Shown piece after piece: positions 237-14,231 of a stretch of DNA of 14,231 bases. The number at the start of each line of letters is the position of its first letter. Positions within the stretch are counted from its first letter, which is position 1. Under the pieces are notes generated by a model. The model saw only the letters and a list, made by a program, of their open reading frames with translations, had not been told where the DNA came from and did not search any database. This DNA is from Leptolyngbyaceae cyanobacterium (lineage in GTDB: Bacteria > Cyanobacteriota > Cyanobacteriia > Phormidesmidales > Phormidesmidaceae). The translations under genes were made by a program, and so were the position numbers. The stretch lies in assembly GCA_965263355.1 (NCBI GenBank), contig CBDHHL010000006.1:1-14231 (forward strand), read 5' to 3'.

Positions 237-2966
237 CGCCCTCTAACCACACTATTCTTACAGCTTTCCACTGCCATTGTGGTCGCACAAGCATTCACTG
301 CTTATGATTGCGCCCACAATAACATCACGGCCACCATCATTGACCTGACAGAACCGGACCACTGCGCCACCCTTGACCCAGGCTCCTACTCAGAGACCAA
401 TGTCACAGTGTCTGTGATATCCACTGCCAACAGGCTCACGATACAAGCGGTCCAATGCCGGGTACTCCTCACCCAGAAGGCAGTTTATTGCGGCTCAGGC
501 CATGCCACTTATGGCACCAGATTCCTGGAGATTGAGAAGCCCATCCACATCTCACCCTCCCACTGCACTGACCAGGATGGCCCCATCATAGCCGACGGCC
601 AACCTTACCCAGCCAATACCTTGGACCATGGAGACAAATACTCCACCTCCTATCCACGAGGCAACCTCGACCACGACCACTACTGCGAGACCGAGTCCTT
701 CACCTACAATGGTGTCTCCTTCTCCTCCCACTACGTGGAACAGGTCGCCAGAACAACCAGAGCCTCCATTACAGGGACCTACAATGCCGCCTCGGGCACA
801 GTCACCTTTGGCAACGTCGCCGTCCCCTTCGCCCAGGGCTACCTGCAAGACGTTACCTTGGGCACCATCACTTGGAACACGACCAATGTCCAGTGCAAAT
901 CCACCACGGACATCATCTACAAGGGCAACGCCACCAAACACTCCCCCACGGACACGACGACTGGAGGCATCACGATCATCACCATTGGCAACTCCAACAC
1001 CAAACAATACGGAGCCTTCACCTTGAAGCAACCCATTCCCCTTTGCGGCAAAGCTTGCTTCGCCACACAGCTGGAGGACTTCACTATCTGTTTCACGGAT
1101 ACACCCGAGACCCACTTCGGCACAGACCCACTCCCTACGCTCGACTTCCACAACACGGAAAGGTTGGCTGGAATCCATACCTTCCAGGTCAACCACGCCC
1201 TCACCACCAGGTCCAATTTCCAGGCCATCAATAAGGCCCTTTGCGAAGTCGATGCCAAGACCATTGCCAACAAGCGGCAACACATCCTGGCCACGGATTC
1301 ATCCGCCGCCGTCATGGACCTCTACGGCCCAGGTTACCAGGTCACCAGGGCTGGGGCAGTAGCATATGTGGCCAAATGCGTACCCATTGAGGTTAACATC
1401 TATGAAGAAGCCCACAATTGCACCCAGGAGCTCCCTGTCATTCTACCCGCGGAGTACAAAGACAGGATCCGCTACATGGACCCAGTCACCAAGATAGTCA
1501 CCAGCTATCCCACCTACACGGTCTGTTCAGAGATCATCAGACCCATGATTAAGATCGGCAACACCTGGTACGAATATGGCCCCATCCGCAACTCCTCCAA
1601 CACGTTCAGACCGGCAACCATCACCCCCACGGTGATTACCTCCACGGTCCTCAAACTCAAGCTGTTCCACTTCGAGATAATACTTGCTGCCTCCATCTAC
1701 ACGGAACAGGACAAGGTCGAGTACAACCTGTATATCACACAGATCTCAGCCAGAGCGCCCATAACCTCCTCCATGGTCAACAGCAAGCTTGACTACGCAG
1801 ACAACCCACAAGCGGCTCTGACCTTCGATGACACCTCCTTCAAGTCCCTCAAATCGGCCTTCCTCTTCCTGGTTAACCCCATAGCCTACATCCTGGGAGA
1901 CGTCGGTCAATACTACATGTGGTTCATGTCCTTCCTGCTCTTCTTAGTCATGCTAAAAGTAGCAGCCGAAGGCATTTACCACATCCTCCTCCAGTACTCA
2001 ACCGATGGCTGCGGTACCTGGTGCCTCCTGGCATGGCTCCGCACTTGCTGGAACGTCGCCAAGGCACCTGTAGCCATCAATGATGCCGCCGTAGAACGCT
2101 TGGTGGACGACCACCCGACACAGAACCACATCCAAATTGAGATGACAGACATGGCACTCCCATCCAGAGACATTGAACAGGAAAGAAGAGACTTTGATCC
2201 CAGGGAGTTTGCAAGCCACAGACCTCCCTCCTACACGACGGCAACTGCACCTCCATTGACAAACCTCGTCAGGTACCCCTCCCTGACGTCCCTCACCTCG
2301 GCACGCGCCCTCCAAGCAGCAGTCGACCCCATGCGTGCTGCTGTCACCACGGCAGCCACAACCCTGAGACGACTGCGCTCAGCCTCGCGGGAAACACTGC
2401 GACGCAGAGCAAATTCAGATACCGCCTCCAGAGCATGGTCAGCCACCAGAGACCTCGCCACAAGAGCACGCAGTGCCTCGGCCAGCACGGCGCGCAGCCT
2501 TTCCCGGGCCGCTTCAAGAGCCGCTTCGGAAAGGTCCTTCAGGAATTCCACGGGCTCACTGAACGCAATCAGACGGTCATTCCGCCAGGGCTCCACCAGG
2601 GCCCTGACACAACTCAATGGATCCCTCAGATCCCTAGCAGCGGCCTCCGATCAGACAATCAACACGAGCAGGCGCGCAGCCAGACACGCCTTACACCAGA
2701 TTGAGGACGATGCCCGCAGTACATTCTCCAAAGCGAGCTCCGCAGCCTCCCGCGCCTCCCGCAAGGCCCGGAAGGTTGCTTTCGCTGCAGCCAGACGAGT
2801 CAGAACATCATCCACCCTGGCTTACCGGCTAATCCAACATCCCCAGGACGCTAACGTCCTGACTCTCGCACCTGATGATGCACGTGCCCCGCTCCTGGAC
2901 GCCGAACCACCTAGGAGACCCCCACGCCGCTCTAGACGTGATCGTCACGAGGACACTAGACACTAA
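237..2966 (+). CDS. env: Env-like class III fusion glycoprotein, chuvirus (Jingchuvirales) G-like, with long basic cytoplasmic tail
   Basis: Signal-like RPLTTLFLQLSTAIVVAQA|FTAYDC. Motifs I recognise from chuviral G: AYDC, QCRV..YCG, PGY...AG....KCVPIEV, CxxELPV, C..IRP....WY, IYT. About six N-x-S/T sequons, membrane-proximal FLVNPIA, TM at about 1911-1990. The frame is open from 192 but has no ATG near the start; the track start at 279 is GTG. Confidence 0.88.
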   Translation, partial: RPLTTLFLQLSTAIVVAQAFTAYDCAHNNITATIIDLTEPDHCATLDPGSYSETNVTVSVISTANRLTIQAVQCRVLLTQKAVYCGSGHATYGTRFLEIEKPIHISPSHCTDQDGPIIADGQPYPANTLDHGDKYSTSYPRGNLDHDHYCETESFTYNGVSFSSHYVEQVARTTRASITGTYNAASGTVTFGNVAVPFAQGYLQDVTLGTITWNTTNVQCKSTTDIIYKGNATKHSPTDTTTGGITIITIGNSNTKQYGAFTLKQPIPLCGKACFATQLEDFTICFTDTPETHFGTDPLPTLDFHNTERLAGIHTFQVNHALTTRSNFQAINKALCEVDAKTIANKRQHILATDSSAAVMDLYGPGYQVTRAGAVAYVAKCVPIEVNIYEEAHNCTQELPVILPAEYKDRIRYMDPVTKIVTSYPTYTVCSEIIRPMIKIGNTWYEYGPIRNSSNTFRPATITPTVITSTVLKLKLFHFEIILAASIYTEQDKVEYNLYITQISARAPITSSMVNSKLDYADNPQAALTFDDTSFKSLKSAFLFLVNPIAYILGDVGQYYMWFMSFLLFLVMLKVAAEGIYHILLQYSTDGCGTWCLLAWLRTCWNVAKAPVAINDAAVERLVDDHPTQNHIQIEMTDMALPSRDIEQERRDFDPREFASHRPPSYTTATAPPLTNLVRYPSLTSLTSARALQAAVDPMRAAVTTAATTLRRLRSASRETLRRRANSDTASRAWSATRDLATRARSASASTARSLSRAASRAASERSFRNSTGSLNAIRRSFRQGSTRALTQLNGSLRSLAAASDQTINTSRRAARHALHQIEDDARSTFSKASSAASRASRKARKVAFAAARRVRTSSTLAYRLIQHPQDANVLTLAPDDARAPLLDAEPPRRPPRRSRRDRHEDTRH

Positions 2967-3035
2967 CCCGTGCCTATTGCAGCCACTCTTGCCGCACCGC
3001 CGCCTACGACCTAAAGGCCTACACCGCGCTGCTCC

Positions 3036-3043
3036 GGAGGATT
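3036..3043 (+). other. Possible short polypurine tract (GGAGGAtt) before the LTR
   Basis: Purine run just 5' of TGTGA at 3044 and about 70 nt after the env stop. It is shorter than a typical PPT. Confidence 0.4.
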
Positions 3044-3138
3044 TGTGAGCAGCTGCAACACGACGATCATTACACACAACAAGGACATAACACACACGGA
3101 AGAAGACGCATACGAACACAACCCTTTCACGCTGGAAG

Positions 3139-3180
3139 CTATATACACATATACATATATACACATATTACATACACACG
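3139..3180. repeat. Degenerate (TA/CA)n low-complexity tract in U3
   Basis: ctatatacacatatacatatatacacatattacatacacacg. Confidence 0.6.
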
Positions 3181-3198
3181 TTACATGACCTTTTACAC

Positions 3199-3212
3199 AA
3201 TAAAAGTCAGTC
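3199..3212 (+). promoter_or_regulatory. Poly(A) signal AATAAA followed by initiator-like TCAGTC
   Basis: AATAAA at 3199-3204 and TCAGTC at 3207-3212. This matches the TCAGTY initiator known from invertebrate gypsy-like LTRs with short R regions. Confidence 0.6.
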
Positions 3213-3531
3213 TTGACAACACGCTAAAACAGTTCACACGTTTCATGCGTTATCGTATATATTCTTATTCCTAAGTGCATTTATTCCGTGATATCTATCC
3301 GTCAACATAGGTAACTATATTCATAAGTATAAGTATATTAGGATACCAGTAAAGCGATGGTATCCACATATACGTGATTAGGTCTCTTGACCTATAGCTA
3401 GGATACAAGGCCTGATAAAGCGATATCTCCCTTTATCAGACCCGACCTAAAGGCGCCGAGGTTACATAACGTCCTCACACGCCTTAAGTGATCATTACCC
3501 CTTCCTTAGGGAGATAGGGTAAGATCACAAA

Positions 3532-3544
3532 TGGTGGCAGCGGT
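3532..3544 (+). other. Primer binding site, complementary to the 3' end of tRNA-Leu
   Basis: TGGTGGCAGCGGT is the reverse complement of ACCGCTGCCA-CCA, the 3' end of metazoan tRNA-Leu(AAG-type) as I recall it. It lies 2 nt after the LTR-terminal CA. Confidence 0.85.
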
Positions 3545-3891
3545 TTTAAACAACCCATGCCATTATTTTCCCCTCAAATATTGCTCACGCTACCACTTAA
3601 CATTCCAATTTATTTTCCGTTAGCTACAAGCTAGCTTCTGTGAGAAAATACTGCATTTATAATGCATTTCCTCCCAACGGTCGCCCTATATTTCTTAAAT
3701 TAGGTGGTCATTCCAAGCTACTTCTTTTCATTTCCGCCATACTAAACTCCCCATGTATAGAGATCATCGGCATCCAACACGTGGTGTCAGCTAATGCAGG
3801 CAAACATCCGCTAGCATTACCCCACCATGTGCTTGTGTGCTGAGCCCCGCTTTTGAGCCAGTGTGATGTAAAACAGGGCGCCAAATTTAAA

Positions 3892-4290
3892 CGTCTGGGA
3901 CGGTGCTTTCTTCAAAGCGAAACTGACTGTGTGTCAACAGGGGAGGCTGTGTGCCTCCTCTGGATCTCTTAGCCGGGCTAATTGATCAATCGGGTAGCAA
4001 CAACCGAGATGCTCTGGGAGCATCCTATAGGACGCCAGTTTTCTCCTCCTATAGTAACAGCATGTGTGTACTGGGTGCACACCACACAATAGAGCACTGT
4101 GTGTGCATTGTGTGACAATTTGTATACACGGGGTGTATACGGTGCTTCCTCTCTGGGAGAGGAGCTAGTCGGGGACTAGCCATGCTCTGCGTGTGCACAT
4201 TATACTGTACCGGGTACAGTGCGCTGTGTGCGCGGCTGTGTGCCGAATGAGTGATGCTATGCATCTCCCTTGGGACCTCTAATGTCCCCA
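3892..4290 (+). other. Dense stem-loop array in the 5' leader (candidate packaging signal)
   Basis: More than 15 adjacent inverted repeats; eight have C-[T/C/G]GG-G loops and five have C-TGTGT-G loops. Confidence 0.8.
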
Positions 4291-4886
4291 TCCTTGCTGG
4301 TCGCTGTCAGAAAACGGGTGCGCCCTGAAAAGTGGAACATGCCTATATGCATAGCTACAGCCCTCTTATCTAACACGGCCTACCTATGCATCATAGTGCA
4401 CGGTCTCTCTATACATAATGAGTAGTCACTGGCATCTTAACATTGCCTCTAACAATTAACATTCAGTCTCTCTGACCCCTCCAAACTGTTCACGCATCTT
4501 GACCACCCACCATGCAACTTCCAACCCTCCCTCTTGCTCTAATTATAGTAAGCGACCGTTAAGACATATGCTTCAGCACATTATATTTAACCCTTCTTTC
4601 TTAGGTTCAGCGCACTCTTTACACGCGCGGGCTTTTCCCTAAGAAAGTTATAAAAACCCTTCTACCACTTTCCTAACTCTTAATTGTTTCCACACACTCA
4701 CACTTCACATACTAACACCAGAATCGCTTTTCTGATTCTGTCCCATAAGCCTTGGCTTATACTCAACACGATCCAGCTATAATTCCACGAAGTGTCCCCC
4801 ATACAAGGTCCAATCAGTAGCCGTCGCAAGCTGCCAGATCGCTACCAATATACGATCCGAGGTCTCTGACCTCCCAACTTTAACCT

Positions 4887-4977
4887 ACTGATCCAGCACA
4901 CTGCTCAAGAGTAGCGGTCTATCAGTATCCACTTCCCACTGATCCAGCACACTGCTCAAGAGTAGCGGTCTATCAGT
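4887..4977 (+). repeat. Perfect 40-bp direct repeat x2 (4887-4926, 4938-4977), each able to fold as a hairpin
   Basis: actgatccagcacactgctcaagagtagcggtctatcagt occurs twice with an 11-nt spacer and ends 6 nt before the gag ATG. Confidence 0.95.
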
Positions 4978-4983
4978 GCAAAG

Positions 4984-6228
4984 ATGAACGACCACGAGAG
5001 AGCCATTTACGCCGATAAGCTTGCCCTCAAGCAAGCTTATGCGCCGTTCCCTGTACTGTCCACCACGGATCCCACCGACTTCAAACGTTGGAGGGATTCC
5101 TTCACAGAGATCGCTATCCTCAACCGCACCAGGGAGCAGGACGCTGTCCGTGCTGCCAGGAACAACCTAAAAGGTGCGGCTTTGCAAAGAGCCAAGCAGA
5201 TTGTTCCAATCATCACAGACGATGACCCCTATACAGGCACTAAACTGTCGCAGTACATGTTTTGCCTGTCCAAGGCCTTCTTGGATGATGCTTCCCCTGC
5301 CAGGAACCTCAAACTGTTCCAAACGGCAGCACAAAAGCACGGCGAAGATTTCCACGACTTGGCTGTGAGGATCAAGACCTACTACATGGAGGCTTATCCC
5401 ACAGCCAACCACGATAACATAGAGGCAAACACCCTCGTGATTGACCGCTATGTGGATGCCATTAAGGACCTCAGCATTCAGCAGTCCTTACTCTCTGTGC
5501 AGAAGCCAACCATATCGGCCACGTCCCAGATTGCATACCGGTTGCGGCAATCCGTCTTGCAATCTTACATCAGCTGTGCACCAGACAAGATCCTCGAGCT
5601 CCAGCGGTTGAGACCGTTCCTCTTCATCTCTCCTGAGGAAATTTCAGGCTTGCCAGGCCACCAAACCTACCAACAGGACCAGTCAATCAACCAAATGGCT
5701 CCCCCACCAGCACCCCCACAGGCGCCAACTGCAGCAACCCCTGCAACACCAGCAAGTGAACCTATTCCACCGGCACAGCCTCAGCCATCAACATCTTTCA
5801 ATATAGATCCAACCCAGCTGCAGGCAGCCCTCGGCATTCAAGCTTTCATGAATGCTGCTACCAGATCCCCTCAGAAGTCAACCTCCAGAGGCCAGGGAAG
5901 ACCAAAGCCGCGCCAACAGTCGCGCACCGACCTCTCAACGGTCACCTGCTACAACTGTGGCACCAAGGGGCATCTGGCTAGAAATTGCACCAGGCCCAAA
6001 CCAAATTCCTCAGTCAGGCTGGTCCTCCCCAGACGGTCAAGCAACCAGTCAGGCAGAAATTCCACTGCTAGAAAGTCTTTCCATAACAAGCTCAGGCAGA
6101 GGATCAACGCCCTCTCAGCTGAGGACTTCGGCAGATTCGCTGAATCCATCAGCAATCTGGAATACACAAGTGATCCAGAAGCCTCGGACATCACTGACGA
6201 GGAGTCCGACGCAGAGCAGGGAAACTAG
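4984..6228 (+). CDS. gag: Gag (capsid plus single CCHC nucleocapsid knuckle), 414 aa
   Basis: MHR-like QKHGEDFHDLAVRIKTYYMEAYP, Pro-rich linker, CYNCGTKGHLARNC (5947-5988), basic then acidic C-terminus, located upstream of pol. Confidence 0.93.
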   Translation: MNDHERAIYADKLALKQAYAPFPVLSTTDPTDFKRWRDSFTEIAILNRTREQDAVRAARNNLKGAALQRAKQIVPIITDDDPYTGTKLSQYMFCLSKAFLDDASPARNLKLFQTAAQKHGEDFHDLAVRIKTYYMEAYPTANHDNIEANTLVIDRYVDAIKDLSIQQSLLSVQKPTISATSQIAYRLRQSVLQSYISCAPDKILELQRLRPFLFISPEEISGLPGHQTYQQDQSINQMAPPPAPPQAPTAATPATPASEPIPPAQPQPSTSFNIDPTQLQAALGIQAFMNAATRSPQKSTSRGQGRPKPRQQSRTDLSTVTCYNCGTKGHLARNCTRPKPNSSVRLVLPRRSSNQSGRNSTARKSFHNKLRQRINALSAEDFGRFAESISNLEYTSDPEASDITDEESDAEQGN

Positions 6229-6250: not shown

Positions 6251-9200
6251 ACCTTCACCCGCAATAACCCAGATCCAGGACACCAATACATACGAATCTG
6301 ACTCTGGTGCAGAAGATGACTCAGACAATGCTGATGAACAAGACACTACCAACAATGACACAGAGGAAGACCCAGAGGCTACGGCCTTCATCTCTCACTT
6401 GCAACAACTTCCACATGCCATTAGGCATAAGGAGACTGATACGGAGGCCCGTAAGGCTAAGACCTTCAGGAAGTTCTTACGCTGTTCAGTGGACGGCCAC
6501 ACTGTCAACGGCCTCGTGGACGGTGGCAACACCTGGCACTCATGCATCTCCGAAAACTTCATGAAAGTTTTAGGATGGAAGAAGACAGACCTCCTACCCA
6601 CCAAGTATTGCAATGTAAATACGGCCAAGAAGGGATCCTCTATCAAGTCCCTCGGACAGTTGCCAAGGCCCTTGACCCTAACTCCTTCCAACGGAGGCAC
6701 ACCTATACAGTTCCAGCCCATGGTCATGAGATCGTTGTCCACTTCACTCAATATCTCAGGACCTTTGCTCGAACTTTGCGGTATCGATCACCTCACCTCC
6801 AAGGGTGCCCTCAATTGGAGAGGCAAAAGGATCCCACTCCTCAACAGACCCAGTCTCAAGGACTCAGCAGCTATTTCCATCCTCGAGACAGCCACACTTC
6901 CACCAAAGTCCCTCAAGTTAGTCCTAGGAGTCTGCCCAGACACAATCAACTCAACCTTTGCATCTGGCACTGTAGTGGTTGAAGGAGACAAGTTATTAGC
7001 AGAGGAAACCAACCTAGCGCCTGCCAGGAATGCCCTCTGCACAATTACACCAGAGGGCTCCGTCTATGTGCCCCTTATCAACCCACATCACTACCCCATT
7101 ACCATCAAGAACGGTACCTTCTATGGGCGAGCTCACCTCACCAAAACCACGCTGCTCAGTAATGGCATCCAGTCCATATCCATGGTCTCTGACTCAGCTG
7201 ATGACTCAGGTTATGACAGCGAGGACGAGGATACCCCACAGGACATCAAGTATTTTGAGAACCTCCCGGAGGACCCAGAAACAAACCCCTCTGACCAATA
7301 CACCAATTGGTCTGATGACCAGAAGAAACAATGGTTCCTGGACACATACAAGTTAGACACCAGGCCCTGCTTCAAAACTCAACACCAGTTGAACCTGGCA
7401 CTAGACACCCTCACCAAACACTTTGACCTTTTCTCCAAGGACGGCTCCTATGGCTTCAGTGACCTCATCACCCATAGAATCATAACGGACGACGTCCAGC
7501 CTGTCAAGGACAAACTGCGACCCTGTAATCCACTGCTACAAGACTCACTCAAGGCACAACTAGAGAAATGGGACAAACATGGAGTCATCGAGCCCTCATA
7601 CTCCCCATGGGCGGCCAATGTTGTCCCAGTTAAGAAGAAAGACAACTCCATCCGCTGGTGTATTGACTACCGCAAACTCAATGCGGTTACTAAGAAGGAC
7701 AGCTTCCCCATGCCCAGCGTCTCGGAAACATTCAACGCTTTGGCAGGATCCTGTCTCTTCTCCAGTGTAGATATGGAAGGAGCATTCCACTCTGTGGCGA
7801 TTCACCCAGCTGACAGGGAGAAGACAGCCTTTATCACGCCATTTGGAACATTCCAGATGAAGAAACTGGGCTTTGGAGTTAGCAATGGCCCTGCAACATA
7901 CTGCAGGCTCATACAGATGGTTCTCAGAGGAATCCCCTCATCCATTGCTTTGGGATTCCTCGACGACGGAATTATTCATTCCAATGATGTCGAGACCCAT
8001 TGCCAAAACCTTGACAGAGTCTTCACAGCATATGCCAACGCTGGGCTCAAAATCAACCCAAAGAAGTGCTCATTATTCATGGAAGAAATCAACTACCTGG
8101 GCCATACAATCAACCAGCACGGCGTCAGACCACCAGCAGAGTACATCGACCAGATCAAAACATGGCCAGTCCCTGACTCTCCAAAGAAGATACGGCGCTT
8201 TCTGGGAATGGTCGGCTACTACAGAAACCATATCCCCGATTACGCTCTTCTCTCAGCCCCATGGACAGACGCCTTGAAGAAAGACAACGTCAAAAAGAAG
8301 ATCAAGCCCACACCTGAGATGATTGCCAACTTTGACAAACTCAAAGAGAAACTCACCACGGCACCCATACTGGGTTTCCCATACTTCCATGGACCAAAGG
8401 CGGGCACCTTCATCCTCGACACAGACTTTTCCTGCAAACAGATCAGCGGGATCCTCTCACAGATCCAGGATGGACAGGAAGTGGTCATAGCTTACGGCTC
8501 CAAAAAGCTAGACAGTGGTCAACAAAACTACCCATCCACAAAAGGGGAGCTGTTCGCTGGCAAACACTTCATGCAGAAATATGCATTCTACCTCAAGTGG
8601 TGCCAACAGTTCACCTGGAGGACCGATAACTCAGCCCTCCAATGGCTGAACAGTATGCAAGACCCGCCCAGTATCATCTACCGGTGGCGAGAAGTACTCA
8701 GGGACTTCAACTTCAAGGTGGTTCACAGGGCAGGAACCAAGCACACCAATGCTGACTGCTTATCGCGAGTGGAATTCGATCAACCACCACCCAAGAAACC
8801 TAAGCTCCAGACAGAAGACCAAAACACCCTGCCGGAGGACCACAAAACCCTGCCGGAGGACCACAACTCCCTGCCGGAGGACCACAATTCCCTGCCGGAG
8901 GACGCCACAGTCGCAGCCCTAGCCAATGATGCGGATTCACTGTCTTACAAACCACAGGAACCCACATGGCAAGACCTCCTCCAGCCCACAGCTCCACCTC
9001 CTCCAAACCAACTCATGAAGCGCATCACTGACCTCATTCCAGTCAGTATGGAGGACGAACAGCAGAAGTGCTCCACCCTCAGTATGGTTCGCAAATGGAT
9101 TAGAGGCATTGACAAACCAGATAGGCTCATGCAGCGATGCTTAACCCCAAACCAGAAGAAGTACTTAGGCACCCTCTCCTCCCTCAAACTCATACAGAGA

Positions 9201-10766
9201 GGAAAGGAACATGTATTGTGCTCCCTGTATCTCAAAGATGACGGTACTGTCCCACACTACCAAATCTGCCTCCCAGAACACCTCTGGGTACCGGTCATCC
9301 AAGCAGCACACACCCTCAATGGTCACATGTCGCATCAAAGTACCCTGGACCGTCTCAAAACCCTGGTGCATTTTCCAAACATGTCTAAAATGGTGAAGCA
9401 AGTTATTCACTCGTGCCAACCATGCATAACCAAACACAAGACAGCCAAGCCCCAGAAGCACACGCTCATTTCCAGTATGCCTCCCTATCCGTTCCACACC
9501 ATCCACGTGGACTTTGTTGGCCCCATTTACAAGTCATCGCAGGGGAACCAATACATATTCACGGTCAAAGACGCTTTCTCACGATGGGTGGAAGCATTTC
9601 CCATGAAGGAAGCCACAGCCAACAACGCAGCCTTCTGCCTGGAAACACAAGTATTCCCACGTTTCGGTCTTCCCCAAAGGATACACTCAGATTGTGGTTC
9701 ACAATTCACAAGTAACTTCTGGAAGCAGTTAGGAGAACAACTTAATATCAAGATCTCCTACACCACTCCATACCACCCCCAATCAAACGGGATGGTTGAA
9801 CGCTTCCACAGGGACCTTGGGAAGATGCTGGCCGCCACCAACAAAGGCGGCTCAGAAGACTGGGAACAAGGCCTTCCAGCCGCACTGATGGCTCTCAGAT
9901 CCGCAAAATCCAGAACCACGAATCTGAGCCCTTACTCAATATTGTTTGGCCGGGAAATGTCTCTGCCACTAGACCTGATTTTCGCACTCCCTGATAAGGA
10001 TACTGAACACATCACAGATGCTAAGGCTAGAGCCTTCACAATCAGGAAGAGGATCAACCGGGCCTATGAGTGTGCCATTATACACGCCCATAGAGCTGTA
10101 GAGAGGCAGAGACGTTCTTACCACCAGGACAAACAATATTTCACCGTTGGCCAAAAGGTGTGGCTTTACACTCCCAAGACATTCGACAGAGGCCCAACCA
10201 AGTTGAAAACTAGATGGTCCGGTCCCTGGACAGTCTGCGCACCACCGGGCAATGAGATTATGATCCGCATCTCACCCATGGCAGGTTGGCAGTTCAAACA
10301 TTCCATAGTGGTCGCCATTGACAGACTCAAGCTGTACACAGGAGAGAACCCCATAGAGCCTGACCCCTCTTCTGACCTACAAATGACCGGTGATGAATTT
10401 GCAGAGGAACTAGACCCTGCGGAGTTCGAGTGGAACAACGACCACTCTGTCGACCTTGAGACCTACAAACACCTCATGCCAGTGCTCACAGGGCCTTCAC
10501 CTTACCCAGATGACACATTAGACGACGGTGATCAAGCACGACCTGGCACACCCCCTCAACATAGTGATATTCAAACAAACATTAGTCAAACCAATACTAG
10601 TCCAACACAGACACAAGTGCAGTGCCCAAATAAAGCCCCTACACCAATTCAAACAGTGCTGACCAGTGTTACATATCCCATAGTTTCTGTACAACTCTTT
10701 CCACCAATCATCAGCAATATGAAATATAAGCCAAAGATCCCATCCGCTTCCAGCCGGAAGAATTAG
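6219..10766 (+). CDS. pol: Pol polyprotein: aspartic protease, reverse transcriptase, RNase H, integrase (made as Gag-Pol, ~1,930 aa)
   Basis: PR LVDGGN. RT SPWAANVV..KK, RWCIDYRKLN, FG...PAT, FLDD, YLGH. RH LDTDFS, KGEL, TDNSAL, NADCLSR. IN H-x4-H..CQPC, VDFVGP, SDCGSQF, NGMVER, GPW. The track start at 6399 is TTG; the frame opens at 6198. Confidence 0.97.
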   Translation, partial: GKLDQPGSTRLPSPAITQIQDTNTYESDSGAEDDSDNADEQDTTNNDTEEDPEATAFISHLQQLPHAIRHKETDTEARKAKTFRKFLRCSVDGHTVNGLVDGGNTWHSCISENFMKVLGWKKTDLLPTKYCNVNTAKKGSSIKSLGQLPRPLTLTPSNGGTPIQFQPMVMRSLSTSLNISGPLLELCGIDHLTSKGALNWRGKRIPLLNRPSLKDSAAISILETATLPPKSLKLVLGVCPDTINSTFASGTVVVEGDKLLAEETNLAPARNALCTITPEGSVYVPLINPHHYPITIKNGTFYGRAHLTKTTLLSNGIQSISMVSDSADDSGYDSEDEDTPQDIKYFENLPEDPETNPSDQYTNWSDDQKKQWFLDTYKLDTRPCFKTQHQLNLALDTLTKHFDLFSKDGSYGFSDLITHRIITDDVQPVKDKLRPCNPLLQDSLKAQLEKWDKHGVIEPSYSPWAANVVPVKKKDNSIRWCIDYRKLNAVTKKDSFPMPSVSETFNALAGSCLFSSVDMEGAFHSVAIHPADREKTAFITPFGTFQMKKLGFGVSNGPATYCRLIQMVLRGIPSSIALGFLDDGIIHSNDVETHCQNLDRVFTAYANAGLKINPKKCSLFMEEINYLGHTINQHGVRPPAEYIDQIKTWPVPDSPKKIRRFLGMVGYYRNHIPDYALLSAPWTDALKKDNVKKKIKPTPEMIANFDKLKEKLTTAPILGFPYFHGPKAGTFILDTDFSCKQISGILSQIQDGQEVVIAYGSKKLDSGQQNYPSTKGELFAGKHFMQKYAFYLKWCQQFTWRTDNSALQWLNSMQDPPSIIYRWREVLRDFNFKVVHRAGTKHTNADCLSRVEFDQPPPKKPKLQTEDQNTLPEDHKTLPEDHNSLPEDHNSLPEDATVAALANDADSLSYKPQEPTWQDLLQPTAPPPPNQLMKRITDLIPVSMEDEQQKCSTLSMVRKWIRGIDKPDRLMQRCLTPNQKKYLGTLSSLKLIQRGKEHVLCSLYLKDDGTVPHYQICLPEHLWVPVIQAAHTLNGHMSHQSTLDRLKTLVHFPNMSKMVKQVIHSCQPCITKHKTAKPQKHTLISSMPPYPFHTIHVDFVGPIYKSSQGNQYIFTVKDAFSRWVEAFPMKEATANNAAFCLETQVFPRFGLPQRIHSDCGSQFTSNFWKQLGEQLNIKISYTTPYHPQSNGMVERFHRDLGKMLAATNKGGSEDWEQGLPAALMALRSAKSRTTNLSPYSILFGREMSLPLDLIFALPDKDTEHITDAKARAFTIRKRINRAYECAIIHAHRAVERQRRSYHQDKQYFTVGQKVWLYTPKTFDRGPTKLKTRWSGPWTVCAPPGNEIMIRISPMAGWQFKHSIVVAIDRLKLYTGENPIEPDPSSDLQMTGDEFAEELDPAEFEWNNDHSVDLETYKHLMPVLTGPSPYPDDTLDDGDQARPGTPPQHSDIQTNISQTNTSPTQTQVQCPNKAPTPIQTVLTSVTYPIVSVQLFPPIISNMKYKPKIPSASSRKN
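8814..8903 (+). repeat. In-frame 21-bp tandem repeat (~4.3 units, LPEDH[K/N][T/S]) in the RNase H-integrase linker
   Basis: Core ccctgccggaggac at 8827, 8848, 8869 and 8890. Confidence 0.95.
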
Positions 10767-10902: not shown

Positions 10903-13900
10903 ATGGAGTTCAACCCCAATGCCACCGACTTCATCTCCGGAGTCTCCAACGCTGAGCTGGTCAACAACACCATGTTGACCCAATCCACCTCCGTAGCCCC
11001 TACCACCTTCGAGCTCACCGCCGTGAGCTCCCCCATGGAGATGACCAGGCACGGGGCTGTAGCCGCCATGACGGCTGCAGGCTCGATCCAGCCGGACCCA
11101 GCCTTCCCGTCTCTGCAGGAGACCGTGACCCGTCACGCCAGTGCGGCTTTCGCTGCAGCCCAGGGATCAATCCAGCCAGATCCCACATTCCCCAGCCTGG
11201 ATGATAAGCGGAACCAGCTTATCGCCAACGCGGACCCCCTCCTCCGCCCAGCCCACATGAGGACCCCAACCAAACCACCCCAGCAGCACGTGGTTAAAAC
11301 AGCCTCCCAACTGGTCAGGGAGCTGTACACCAGCCAGCCAAGGGACCCCATGTCAACCCCACCCCACAAAAAGAGGGCCTTCGAGTACCAGGAGTCCGAC
11401 TTCCCCTCACTCCATGACCTGACTACCAAAGGAGTGATGGAGAGGCCGGGGTACTCGACCATGAATCTCCAGAGAGCCAGAGCCAGGGACACCGAGTCCA
11501 ACTCAACCCAGTCCCCTCCCACAACGGTCCCTCACTCGCCGGCCCCTTACACACCCAGGGCAGTCAACTCAAACCTGACCCCCTTAGGTACACCCAACAA
11601 GAGACATTTGGGCAGCAGGGACTCCAACATCTCAATCGAGCCCCTCCACCAAACCAACCAGGCTATCCAGGCCTCCCAGCAAAGCCTGCTAAGGACTTCG
11701 GAGGACCTCGGAAGGACGGCCGACACAACCGTCTCCAAGCTCTCCAACCTTAGTGACCTCGTTGCCAAGCAAATCCCGGAGGCGCTTACGCAACTCACCA
11801 ACCTCAACCAGGAAATTGCCAGCAAGACTAGCCAGCTGCACGATCTGGAGCTCTCTCTGGCCACAACCAGATCGCCCAGGGCCTCTCACTCAAGATCAGG
11901 CTCCTTCTCTAGACCATCGAGGTCAAGGAACCCCTCCACGAGCTCCAAGACCCGCTCGCCCTCGGCCTCCCCAGCTACCCGCAGCCGCAACAAGTCCCTC
12001 CAGGAGGACTTAGACAGATTGAGATCTCGCATCGAGGAGAAGACAACCAAAATCGATGCTCTCAACAGCCAAGAACGATCTCTCCAAGACAGGCTATCCA
12101 AGTCAAAGAAGGCCAAACAAGAAGCAGACTCCGCTGTCAACGTGGCTCGCCGTACCAAAATTGACGTCGACACAGAGGTTAAGTCACTCAAGAAAGAGAA
12201 GGAAAACCTCCTTAAGACCATCTCAGAGCTTCGATGCAAGGAGGCAGCCTTGGAGTCCCGCAAGAAGGACGACGATGATGCCGCCGCTGCAGCCCAGGCG
12301 GTCAAGAAGGAAACAGAGAGTCTGAACAACAAGATCGCAGACCTCAAAGCGACCCTTGCCAGACTTGGCGCCGACAAGCGAAACTTGGAAACCACCTTGG
12401 CGGCGCATAACCTCGAGGTTACCACACAGAGGTCAAACCTCCATGACCTCAACCAGCAGCTATCCCAAGCTGCAGTCAACTTGCGGAGGACCAAAGAAGA
12501 TCATATAGCCGCCTCCAATGAACTCAATGCCATTAACGCTGCCATTACCGAGGCCAGAACGGCATATGAACAAGAACAAGAAGCCAGACAACAGCAGATG
12601 ACCACTACCGATAACCAGATTGCGGAACTACAACAACACCTCGTGGCCCTCCAGCAGCAATATGACACCCAGAAACAGCAGATGACCGCGCAGATCGACA
12701 GCCTCCGGGCTGACACTGACAAGCTTCAGCGCCAAAACAAAGAAGCAGCTGAGTCCCTCAGCGACACACTGTCCTCCAACTCGGCCTCCCTACAAAATTC
12801 GGCCATTAAACAATCCAACGAGCTCAACGCTGAGTTGGAGGCAGTCAGAAACAAGGTGGGTGCAGCCAAAATGCGCCTCACCCAAGTCAATAAGGAGCTC
12901 ACACAGGCCACCACCGACCTCCAGAAAGTGCAAGCCGACAAAAATTCAACAGAGGATGACCTAAGTATCACCAAGTCCAGACTGGACTTAGAGTGCAAGA
13001 AACTACACGACGTCCTCCATGCTCTCGACAGCACCAAGACCAGCCACGAAAATTCCAAGACGGCCCTCAACAAGGCCACCGCAGAATTAGACAAGGTCAC
13101 CAGAGCAGTGCAGGACAAAACTAAGGATCACCAGAACTTGACAGCCCAGGTCTCCAAAGCCAGATCCACCCTGCAAGAGCTCTCGTCAGACATCACTATG
13201 GCCCGCAAAAACCCCATAGTGCCAGCACCACTCTCCCCCATACCAATGGCACACCCCTCCATGATGATGGAGTTTGATGATGCCACTAACTCATGGGTTA
13301 GGCCGCAAGGACTGCCAGTCACACCAGGCAAGTCCATCCCCACACAGCCTCACTCAAGCAGCAACACGGTGACTGTCAACCCCACCATAACCATTCAGGC
13401 CCCAGCTGCAAGAGATGGCGAGGCCAATATTGCCCACCAGGCCGCAGCTTTCTTTGCACAAGCGGGCAAAGATCTAACCACATATGTGAATCATGAAATT
13501 ACGCAGTCCCAGGCCCTCCTAGCCAATCAGATCCAGACCATGAATGCCACTATAGCAGACATGAAGACAACGGCACTTAAGCACTTTGAGGTCCAGAAGG
13601 CGACTTATGCGCAACATTTCAACGACCTTGAGGCCATGCAGGTCCAATTCAATCAGCAGAAAGATACAGAAGCTGCAATCCAAATCGGCCAACTCAAAGA
13701 GACCTTGACAGAAGAATTTAAAGCGACAAGACAAGTTGACTTACTGGAACCACAAATTGCCAAGCAGCAAACCCAGATCACCCTCCTACAGAATGCACTC
13801 AAAGAAATAGACCGACTCCTCAAGGCCCAACAGAGCAAGAAACCAGGCAAAGGCAGTAAAAAGACTCAGCACATCGCAGAGAAACAGCTCCAGATAGCCT

Positions 13901-14231
13901 CACAACTGGAGCTCCAGGACATTGACGCCAATGCCACTGAGGATGACCTAGCCCGAAACCAGACCAAGCTGTACAGGACCATCAATAACAAGATCGAAGA
14001 CCAACATGCCAGGGTCACGAGAGTAATGGAGGATCTGCGCAACGACATCCACGATCCTAACACTCTATTCTCCATCGACCCGAAGACAGTGGCTCACAAA
14101 AGGCCTAGGGATATCTCTACTGACACCACAATAGGCAAGCCTCCTGCCAAGATTACACCAACAGTGGACACTTCAAGAGTACCACAAGAGCATCTTGCCT
14201 CCGTGCAAGAAACATTATCCAAGTTACACCC
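10903..14231 (+). CDS. ORF3: large accessory protein (>=1,109 aa) with disordered N-terminus, RS-rich patch and long coiled coils; runs off the window end
   Basis: Hand translation from ACC-ATG-G (strong Kozak; upstream in-frame TGA at 10849) finds no stop to 14231. It begins MEFNPNATDFISG. Heptad-rich Q/E/K/L/A stretches lie at about 11990-13200 and 13480-14050. It is presumably absent from the ORF track because it has no stop codon. Confidence 0.9.
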   Translation, partial: MEFNPNATDFISGVSNAELVNNTMLTQSTSVAPTTFELTAVSSPMEMTRHGAVAAMTAAGSIQPDPAFPSLQETVTRHASAAFAAAQGSIQPDPTFPSLDDKRNQLIANADPLLRPAHMRTPTKPPQQHVVKTASQLVRELYTSQPRDPMSTPPHKKRAFEYQESDFPSLHDLTTKGVMERPGYSTMNLQRARARDTESNSTQSPPTTVPHSPAPYTPRAVNSNLTPLGTPNKRHLGSRDSNISIEPLHQTNQAIQASQQSLLRTSEDLGRTADTTVSKLSNLSDLVAKQIPEALTQLTNLNQEIASKTSQLHDLELSLATTRSPRASHSRSGSFSRPSRSRNPSTSSKTRSPSASPATRSRNKSLQEDLDRLRSRIEEKTTKIDALNSQERSLQDRLSKSKKAKQEADSAVNVARRTKIDVDTEVKSLKKEKENLLKTISELRCKEAALESRKKDDDDAAAAAQAVKKETESLNNKIADLKATLARLGADKRNLETTLAAHNLEVTTQRSNLHDLNQQLSQAAVNLRRTKEDHIAASNELNAINAAITEARTAYEQEQEARQQQMTTTDNQIAELQQHLVALQQQYDTQKQQMTAQIDSLRADTDKLQRQNKEAAESLSDTLSSNSASLQNSAIKQSNELNAELEAVRNKVGAAKMRLTQVNKELTQATTDLQKVQADKNSTEDDLSITKSRLDLECKKLHDVLHALDSTKTSHENSKTALNKATAELDKVTRAVQDKTKDHQNLTAQVSKARSTLQELSSDITMARKNPIVPAPLSPIPMAHPSMMMEFDDATNSWVRPQGLPVTPGKSIPTQPHSSSNTVTVNPTITIQAPAARDGEANIAHQAAAFFAQAGKDLTTYVNHEITQSQALLANQIQTMNATIADMKTTALKHFEVQKATYAQHFNDLEAMQVQFNQQKDTEAAIQIGQLKETLTEEFKATRQVDLLEPQIAKQQTQITLLQNALKEIDRLLKAQQSKKPGKGSKKTQHIAEKQLQIASQLELQDIDANATEDDLARNQTKLYRTINNKIEDQHARVTRVMEDLRNDIHDPNTLFSIDPKTVAHKRPRDISTDTTIGKPPAKITPTVDTSRVPQEHLASVQETLSKLH

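Follow-up and report, generated by a model that had tools for sequence, protein, structure and literature searches.

The window, that is, the whole stretch of 14,231 bases analysed here, represents one unit of a Ty3/gypsy LTR element that carries env, in circularly permuted form. Contigs of three sequencing runs join position 14228 back to position 1, and the final three letters of the window equal its first three; hence, the unit has a length of 14,228 bases, and in the window the tail of ORF3 is followed by env, a noncoding stretch, gag, pol, and ORF3. The features of the element are as follows.

279-2966: ORF of env, encoding a fusion glycoprotein of the Monjiviricetes type (Pfam, E 4.9e-51)
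About 3044..3529, plus strand: probable LTR, 486 bp, with TGTGA...TCACA termini (contig breaks and terminal repeat)
3532..3544, plus strand: candidate primer binding site, which begins with TGG two bases past the LTR end (sequence reading)
3532..4983, plus strand: 5' leader of the genomic RNA, 1452 nt (no plus-strand ORF of at least 80 aa)
4984..6228, plus strand: gag (ORF; Pfam, Gag with one CCHC knuckle)
5944..5991, plus strand: single CCHC zinc knuckle of Gag, residues 321-336 (Pfam zf-CCHC, E 8.3e-07)
6399-10766: pol of the Ty3/gypsy type, with RT, RNase H, and integrase (Pfam)
10903-14229: ORF3, 1109 aa (Pfam, no family)

ORF3 continues across the junction of the unit for 26 codons more, up to a stop at 80-82. 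The sequencing data considered here come from four runs, X1 to X4, belonging to two studies, all of them taken as contigs and not as reads. Beyond 3529, three X1 contigs leave the window and continue into sequences that differ from one another (agreement 0.62), which marks the 3' end of the LTR; the 5' end is placed where an X3 contig begins, at 3044, with the termini forming a 5-nt inverted repeat, and this 5' boundary is less certain than the 3' one. Read from the sequence, the LTR holds a TATA-like run at 3141-3170 and an AATAAA at 3201. ACACA-rich runs are found at 3070-3180 and at 118-160. The region comprising U5 and the PBS (3330-3600) folds with a z of -8.0, and the candidate primer site appears to match the 3' end of a tRNA-Leu over 13 bases. 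The tRNA scan detected no tRNA genes in the window. The leader that starts at the primer site carries several upstream AUGs as well as stable hairpins.

An exhaustive hairpin scan of the whole 14,231-base window, directed at stems of at least 4 pairs (G-U allowed) with loops of 3 or 5 and a C-G closing pair, retrieved 13 such motif hairpins on the plus strand, all of them within 3892-4245 (354 nt) and at the places where the initial annotation had reported them. Each is closed by a C-G pair; eight have NGG triloops (tgg in four, cgg in two, and ggg in two) and five have TGTGT pentaloops. The array lies on the coding strand, begins 360 nt past the primer site at 3532, and stops 739 nt short of the gag AUG at 4984, so that the psi-like position between PBS and gag that had been attributed to it is correct. 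In the following list, the pair probabilities are those predicted by a partition-function fold of the full leader.

3892..3902, plus strand: hairpin CGTC-tgg-GACG, mean pair probability 0.71
3924..3936, plus strand: hairpin TGAC-tgtgt-GTCA, pair probability 0.73
3938..3962, plus strand: hairpin of 10 bp with a tgtgt loop and one internal G-U pair, pair probability 1.00
3969..3981, plus strand: hairpin TTAGC-cgg-GCTAA, pair probability 0.94
4008..4024, plus strand: hairpin GATGCTC-tgg-GAGCATC, pair probability 0.95
4064..4082, plus strand: hairpin of 8 bp with a tgg loop and one internal U-G pair, pair probability 0.96
4083..4114, plus strand: two-tier hairpin CACACAAT/ATTGTGTG around GCAC-tgtgt-GTGC (4094-4106), inner stem 0.72
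4120..4142, plus strand: hairpin GTATACAC-ggg-GTGTATAC with two terminal G-U pairs, pair probability 0.38, out-competed in the leader fold
4146..4164, plus strand: hairpin TCCTCTC-tgg-GAGAGGA, pair probability 0.83
4164..4180, plus strand: hairpin GCTAGTC-ggg-GACTAGC, pair probability 0.73
4203..4221, plus strand: hairpin TACTGTAC-cgg-GTACAGTG, pair probability 0.93
4220..4234, plus strand: hairpin GCGC-tgtgt-GCGC, paralog of the 4094 hairpin, pair probability 0.01, out-competed
4233..4245, plus strand: hairpin CGGC-tgtgt-GCCG, pair probability 0.46
4253..4288, plus strand: two hairpins with non-motif loops, GATGC-tat-GCATC and GGGAC-ctctaat-GTCCC, on the 3' side of the array

The pair at stem position 1 is C-G in all 13 hairpins, and positions 2 to 4 use 3 to 5 pair types, the pairing as such at positions 1 to 4 being a matter of selection, since a stem of at least 4 was a requirement of the search. 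The 13 motif stems contain no internal mismatch, all of the hairpins are near-perfect palindromes, and C-U-G opens 9 of the 13 loops, as read from the hairpin list. The stems had been described as unrelated. Among the 13, there are 12 distinct inner 4-nt stems. The stems are not all unrelated, however, since the pentaloop hairpins at 4094 and 4221 have flanks that are 81% alike over 16 nt; these two paralogs differ by one compensated change, from an A-T to a G-C pair. Further traces of similarity consist of a decayed pentaloop copy at 4184-4197 and of two 12-mers, at 3900 and 4139, that are 92% alike, whereas no tandem periodicity was found in the array.

The composition of the array sets it apart from its surroundings. 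The plus strand of the window is C/A-rich throughout (C 31.7%, A 28.7%), and its GC skew is negative in every bin but 3901-4350; the G content is 20.2% for the window and 15.9% for the leader outside the array, but 29.9% within the array. The loop bases of the array comprise 28 G, 19 T, 2 C, and no A, and the remaining 305 nt are balanced (C81, G78, T75, A71). The G/T-rich block in a C/A-rich strand noted in the initial annotation is thus real, and its excess comes from the loops alone. An 80-aa ORF on the minus strand, at 4049-4291, overlaps the array.

The array is not a product of chance and stands far above background. Among 2000 dinucleotide-preserving shuffles of 3880-4300, the mean number of motif hairpins was 0.17 and the maximum was 3; in 80 related loci, counted on both strands, 261 motif hairpins occurred in 994,732 nt, a density of 0.26 per kb, while that of the array is 36.7 per kb. 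According to the scan of the window itself, the other 13.8 kb of the plus strand contain no motif hairpin and the minus strand contains six. No Rfam family matched either strand of 2900-5100 at E values up to 1. Three other readings were considered and dropped, namely, microRNA-like precursors, for which stems of 4-10 bp are too short, a G-quadruplex, for which the G runs are too widely spaced, and a coding function of the minus strand.

When folded against shuffled controls, as had been proposed for checking the hairpins, the 421-nt block folds better than its shuffles in both directions, with z = -4.5 on the plus strand and z = -7.0 on the minus strand, so that the fold on the minus strand equals or beats that on the plus strand. 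Internal G-U pairs number two on the plus strand and none on the minus strand, very small numbers as evidence for a strand. The partition-function fold of the full leader predicts pair probabilities of at least 0.7 for 10 of the 13 motif hairpins, with loops that are at least 0.73 unpaired in these 10, and predicts that the remaining three, at 4120 (0.38), 4220 (0.01), and 4233 (0.46), lose to alternative pairing. In the minimum-energy fold of 3880-4300, eight of the 13 hairpin loops are motif loops and five are others (CUUC, a 10-nt loop, UCU, UAU, and CUCUAAU). The statement that there are only two loop types is therefore too strong.

A candidate reader of such loops is encoded by the element itself. 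The single CCHC knuckle of Gag is flanked by basic stretches, and a comparison with all solved structures gave HIV-1 NC (1F6U and 1A1T) as the closest ones, with E values of 8e-9 to 1e-8, the best alignment being with knuckle 1 of HIV-1 NC. The Val, Tyr, Leu, and Ala of Gag align opposite Val13, Phe16, Ile24, and Ala25 of HIV-1 NC, which, according to the portion of the source consulted, make up the guanosine pocket of HIV-1 NC with the psi and SD hairpins (PMC7599994). The same portion describes retroviral knuckles as binding exposed guanosines, with the single-knuckle NC of MoMuLV binding UCUG (PMC7599994). Judging from this alignment, the knuckle of Gag is probably of the G-binding kind, and the link with CCHC knuckles suggested earlier finds its counterpart in the fact that the nearest structures are those of HIV-1 NC complexed with G-containing psi loops.

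It is from the anatomy, the leader position, and the predicted fold of the array, together with the type of knuckle, that we infer a role in binding, multivalency, packaging, or dimerization. Our preferred reading, which we hold tentatively and regard as falling a little short of probable, is that the array is a multivalent platform on the genomic RNA for Gag/NC docking and dimerization. It would act in cis, as an RNA element in the 5' leader of the full-length sense transcript. On its C-G clamp, each of the approximately 13 stem-loops would expose either a UG run (UGUGU) or, in the NGG loops, one or two unpaired G; the single CCHC knuckle of Gag would thereby find many equivalent sites to dock at, each of them weak. 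Several copies of Gag could then bind cooperatively to this G-rich island, which would stand out in an otherwise G-poor, C/A-rich RNA, and capsid assembly would be nucleated on the genomic RNA. Since every hairpin is a near-perfect palindrome, inter-strand duplexes are possible, and the chaperone activity of NC might convert the block into such duplexes, linking two genomes.

Several observations fit Gag docking: the position of the array in the leader and on the coding strand of an LTR element with gag, pol, and env; the varied stems as opposed to the fixed closing pair and loops, along with one compensated change between paralogs; the confinement of the G excess to loops that are predicted to be unpaired; and the residues of the knuckle pocket, which appear to be kept with respect to HIV-1 NC. 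The place, strand context, and loop chemistry of the array and the knuckle type thus fit a docking strip for Gag/NC, which may double as a dimer linkage. Against Gag docking speak the 80 distant relatives, which are devoid of the array, the fold of the minus strand, which is as good as that of the plus strand, and the 3 of 13 hairpins that are out-competed. Moreover, a triloop clamped by a C-G pair may leave its G difficult to reach. Two results reported in the portion of the source consulted, namely, that MoMuLV NC does not bind isolated psi hairpins and that replacement of the HIV GGAG loop hardly changed packaging (PMC7599994), would, by analogy, be caveats for a model in which the loops are read.

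Concerning the relatives, a word-indexed protein search found one pol that is 99% identical to that of the window, while the next ones are all at most 58% identical. The 80 related loci were collected in a metagenome scan with a 16-row pol alignment and have pol identities of 27-57%. The 12-mer of the primer site is present in 0 of the 80, blastn gave no matches in them to the noncoding stretch 2967-4983, and gag and ORF3 had no tblastn match in them at 1e-5; the same kind of env occurs in 10 of the 80. None of these loci contains more than four motif hairpins per 500 nt, the maximum being four weak 4-bp motif hairpins in 500 nt in one locus (L005), and a motif-free scan of all 80 found no dense hairpin array with recurring loops of any sort. 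The initial annotation had proposed that homologous leaders be aligned in search of covariation. This led nowhere: 0 of 80 distant loci have an alignable leader or a similar array, and orthologous covariation is thus not to be seen among them. Since these relatives are distant, we deem the missing array to be a blank and not a refutation. As far as the 80 loci reach, the array appears to be specific to its own lineage. Neither a protein scan for relatives of pol nor a search with an exact 25-mer of the array produced any match in viral contigs.

Splicing of env bears on which RNAs contain the array. Six related loci have a conserved YDC motif in env that is directly preceded by a signal peptide, and in these the frame opens with an ATG of its own; in the window, the YDC motif and the final part of a signal peptide are present in the env frame, with no ATG after the upstream stop. 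Pyrimidine-rich cag acceptors precede this frame at 236/237 and 263/264, and a candidate for the absent start lies in the leader.

4512..4553, plus strand: candidate mini-exon, ATG plus 11 hydrophobic codons (mini-ORF 4512-4547), putative

The mini-ORF at 4512-4547 would supply the start of the env signal peptide, and it is followed by a candidate donor, ATA/GTAAGC, at 4548, in phase and with a score of 5.65 on a crude donor matrix. The top-scoring donor of the crude scan, at 3519, is upstream of both the primer site and the array; its use would place the array within the intron of subgenomic RNAs. Going by the reading frames, we consider 4548 to be the most plausible env splice donor. It is downstream of the array, and consequently the spliced RNA may carry the array too, which is the main reason why we do not rate the packaging reading higher. 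An arrangement in which a signal of this type is upstream of the env donor, and is hence retained in spliced RNA, is that of avian retroviruses.

The possible presence of the array in spliced RNA is also the reason why another explanation retains its weight, somewhat unlikely as we consider it to be, namely, that a host RNA-binding protein which reads UG/GU-rich or G-rich loops uses the array as its landing pad. Such a protein could serve the nuclear export of intron-containing RNA, cap-independent or shunt translation past the 1.45-kb leader, localization, or stability. If the env donor is 4548, the array would be present in spliced and unspliced RNA alike, which suits a general RNA function better; the upstream AUGs and stable hairpins of the leader would hinder scanning; and the loops fall into two discrete classes, one of which is a UG run. 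Host proteins such as those of the CELF/Bruno and TDP-43 kind bind UG/GU-rich elements. However, nothing favors a host factor over Gag, the knuckle of Gag is apparently of the G-binding kind, and the related elements of the 80 loci, which would face the same host machinery, are without the array.

That the array works through contacts between RNAs, with the UGUGU loops pairing with ACACA runs and the NGG loops pairing with CCN, strikes us as distinctly unlikely. The partner could be in the same molecule, leading to 5'-3' cyclization or compaction, or in a second copy, leading to dimer linkage, and stems might be swapped between strands. The plus strand would be suited to such contacts, being C/A-rich (C 31.7%, A 28.7%) and having the ACACA-rich runs at 3070-3180 and 118-160, and 13 of the 13 hairpins are near-perfect palindromes. 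However, loops of five and three bases make weak contacts, triloops lend themselves poorly to kissing, and we identified no specific partner site. Dimer-linkage palindromes and 5'-3' cyclization are described for Ty1 in the part of a review that we consulted (PMC4974528). The RNA-RNA explanation overlaps with the Gag docking reading and does not exclude it.

The contigs of the four runs give some insight into how the array varies between copies of the same family. Among the pieces and differing positions that were listed (32 of 2009 pieces and 40 of 1457 positions), an X2 contig spanning the array (3856-4443) has one difference (1/588), and an X3 contig (3857-4186) has one difference (1/330) as well as a 26-nt insertion behind 4090, that is, in the two-tier hairpin at 4083..4114. 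This insertion accounts for a depth of 140.9 of 140.9 in X3, in one contig, and reappears in X1 as a loose end. Taken together, the array contigs of X2 and X3 differ at 2 of 918 positions, compared with 110 of 10,403 for the other 18 near-identical pieces listed; among the 32 listed of 2009 pieces, the low divergence of the array between runs is a weak hint of constraint. At a depth of 2, the run contigs also show 132 nt skipped between 3883 and 4016. More diverged copies are present as well, since X1 to X3 include contigs that are 85-95% alike, and 149 of 1172 X3 pieces are less than 90% alike. Finally, a contig from a leaf-litter metatranscriptome covers 4211-4405 with two differences. Coming from an RNA library, this contig is a sign of presence and not proof of transcription, and the stretches of the window that lack RNA-contig cover in X4 are uninformative.

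These data bear on the view that the array is a young by-product devoid of function, in which reverse transcription would have produced inverted duplications at CNGGG or CTGTGTG sites, through template switching or snap-back synthesis, too recently for them to have decayed. It would account for an array that is lineage specific among the 80 loci, for indels of the size of a hairpin (the 26-nt insertion behind 4090 and the 132-nt skip from 3883 to 4016, depth 2), for both strands folding equally well, and for the decayed pentaloop copy at 4184-4197. We nevertheless regard it as quite improbable: mutation alone leaves unexplained why the same C-G pair and two loop sequences are found on 13 independent stems, and neither the compensated change between 4094 and 4221 nor, among the listed pieces, the low divergence of the block between runs is explained, and the 13 motif stems are free of internal mismatches.

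Binding sites for a protein at the DNA level, like the insulator/enhancer arrays in the 5' UTR of gypsy-type elements of Drosophila, would occupy the same position in the element, between primer site and gag, as does the Su(Hw) site array that gypsy carries in its 5' UTR, but we hold this to be very improbable, since the units have only 5 to 7 bases in common, their unrelated flanks are palindromic in every unit, which is needless for DNA sites, and there is no tandem period, while an insulator array of the gypsy type repeats, with spacers, a duplex-DNA consensus of about a dozen bases.

If docking of Gag is indeed the function of the array, its modular strip could be the first packaging code readable from the sequence in an env-bearing element of Ty3/gypsy (Metaviridae), with two-loop hairpins as units that are read multivalently by a single-knuckle Gag and are gained or lost as cassettes (compare the 26-nt indel), their stems drifting while pairing is kept; we consider this broader proposal possible, though we would not call it probable. 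As a candidate signal, the array is unusually legible, being composed of 13 tiny units with two loop words and one closing pair, and it could reveal how a zinc-knuckle Gag selects RNA and whether this occurs by multivalency or through one high-affinity site. If a host protein uses it as a pad instead, it would reveal how cells deal with a long leader laden with AUGs. The finding is so far confined to one element family and rests on prediction.

Among related retroelements, the 5' ends of Ty1 and Ty3 RNA carry signals for dimerization, packaging, and priming, and the binding sites of Gag on both RNAs are called imprecisely defined in the consulted part of a 2016 review (PMC4974528). The element of the window differs from Ty1 and Ty3 in having a much longer leader and an env gene, and that part of the review describes no hairpin array (PMC4974528). 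In PMC3258130, which was searched for statements on Ty3, the term packaging signal is confined to the reference list, and our search for literature on errantivirus packaging signals found no paper in the collection covered.

The resemblance to retroviral psi consists in the location of the array, past the primer site and ahead of gag in the leader, in a predicted structured RNA that exposes G, and in a Gag with a CCHC knuckle. Examples of psi given in the parts of the sources consulted are the GGUG and GGAG loops of SL2 and SL3 in HIV-1 and the UCUG sites of MoMuLV (PMC7599994), and several unpaired-G sites in the leaders of HIV-1 and HIV-2 are reported to aid packaging jointly (PMC12031250). 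Unlike psi, which is made up of a few idiosyncratic stem-loops and junctions, the array is a row of approximately 13 minimal hairpins with two motif loops and a fixed C-G clamp, and, unlike many but not all retroviral psi, it may precede the env splice donor and hence would not be limited to unspliced RNA. No sequence or Rfam similarity was found for it, and conservation with covariation, as expected of psi, was not found for it in the 80 distant loci.

The packaging signal in nsP1 of alphaviruses, described in the consulted portion of the source as stem-loops with repeated GGG motifs that are recognized by the capsid protein (PMC6283419), is likewise a series of stem-loops in which variable stems share a G-rich loop motif. 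That signal belongs to a plus-strand RNA virus whose capsid protein is unrelated, and it is situated within coding sequence, whereas the array is in a noncoding leader, has UGUGU as a second loop class, and would be read by a zinc-knuckle Gag. Comparable features are reported, as far as the sources were consulted, for the packaging-signal-mediated assembly of single-stranded RNA viruses and HBV, in which many degenerate stem-loops present a short loop motif such as RGAG (PMC6281560, PMC7612645, PMC5699041). There, as in the array, differing stems present a common short motif; however, those signals are dispersed, while the 13 hairpins of the array are clustered in 354 nt.

Contigs from three sequencing runs join the end of the window (14228) to its start (1), and the window is therefore a circularly permuted unit of 14,228 bases carrying one LTR. 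A collapsed LTR pair, a tandem arrangement or a circle could each be the source of such a single-LTR unit. Within the LTR, one contig of run X3 (depth 26) skips 387 nt (3055 to 3443), while a contig of run X2 enters the window at 3443 coming from unlike sequence, which together suggest that some copies have a shortened LTR or have been rearranged. The U5-primer-site region (3330 to 3600) is the strongest structure within the noncoding stretch, with a fold energy well below that of shuffled sequence (z = -8.0), and the predicted fold places the primer site itself within a hairpin.

The hairpin array in the leader upstream of gag also varies among copies. An insertion of 26 nt at position 4090, the final bases of which repeat the 6 bases preceding it, is the sole form at that position in X3 and is also found in X1, but is present neither in X2 nor in the window. 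This variant is a gain or loss of hairpin size within the array, and the inserted bases could form a small hairpin of their own with a different loop. In L051, a distant relative recovered from metagenomes, we observed five perfect hairpins of 7 to 9 bp within 400 nt downstream of pol (3562 to 3961), all of them free of wobble pairs and each with a different loop. The array is spanned by an open reading frame, and tandem repeats lie next to gag and within pol:

4049 to 4291, minus strand: ORF of 80 amino acids spanning the array
4884 to 4977: 51-nt tandem duplication, copies 98% alike, directly 5' of the gag AUG
8807 to 8911: four to five 21-nt tandem repeats in pol

The minus-strand ORF most likely arises incidentally from the array palindromes. 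The two 51-nt copies are predicted to form one long hairpin together (z = -3.3). In both X2 and X3 there are contigs that lack 50 nt of this region (4930 to 4981), and therefore copies with a single 51-nt unit exist. The repeats in pol encode a proline-rich stretch flanked by RNase H on one side and integrase on the other, and an 8-nt skip variant of this region occurs in one run.

Further features concern the start of env and the interval between pol and env:

236/237 and 263/264 (region 200 to 300): candidate cag splice acceptors ahead of env
4512 to 4553: hydrophobic mini-ORF of 12 codons, ending at a GTAAGC donor (4548)
10903 to 14229, running on at 2 to 82: ORF of 1135 amino acids between pol and env

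The env of the window has no ATG of its own; the env genes of six relatives have one. Judging from the sequence, the mini-ORF could be the source of the env signal-peptide start, via a splice across gag-pol-ORF3. For the 1135-amino-acid ORF no Pfam family was found, its sole matches being weak coiled-coil ones (E values of 0.003 and 0.02), and tblastn gave matches in none of the 80 related loci. Relatives of the element proceed from pol to env without this intervening ORF, which is an additional gene in the window's element.
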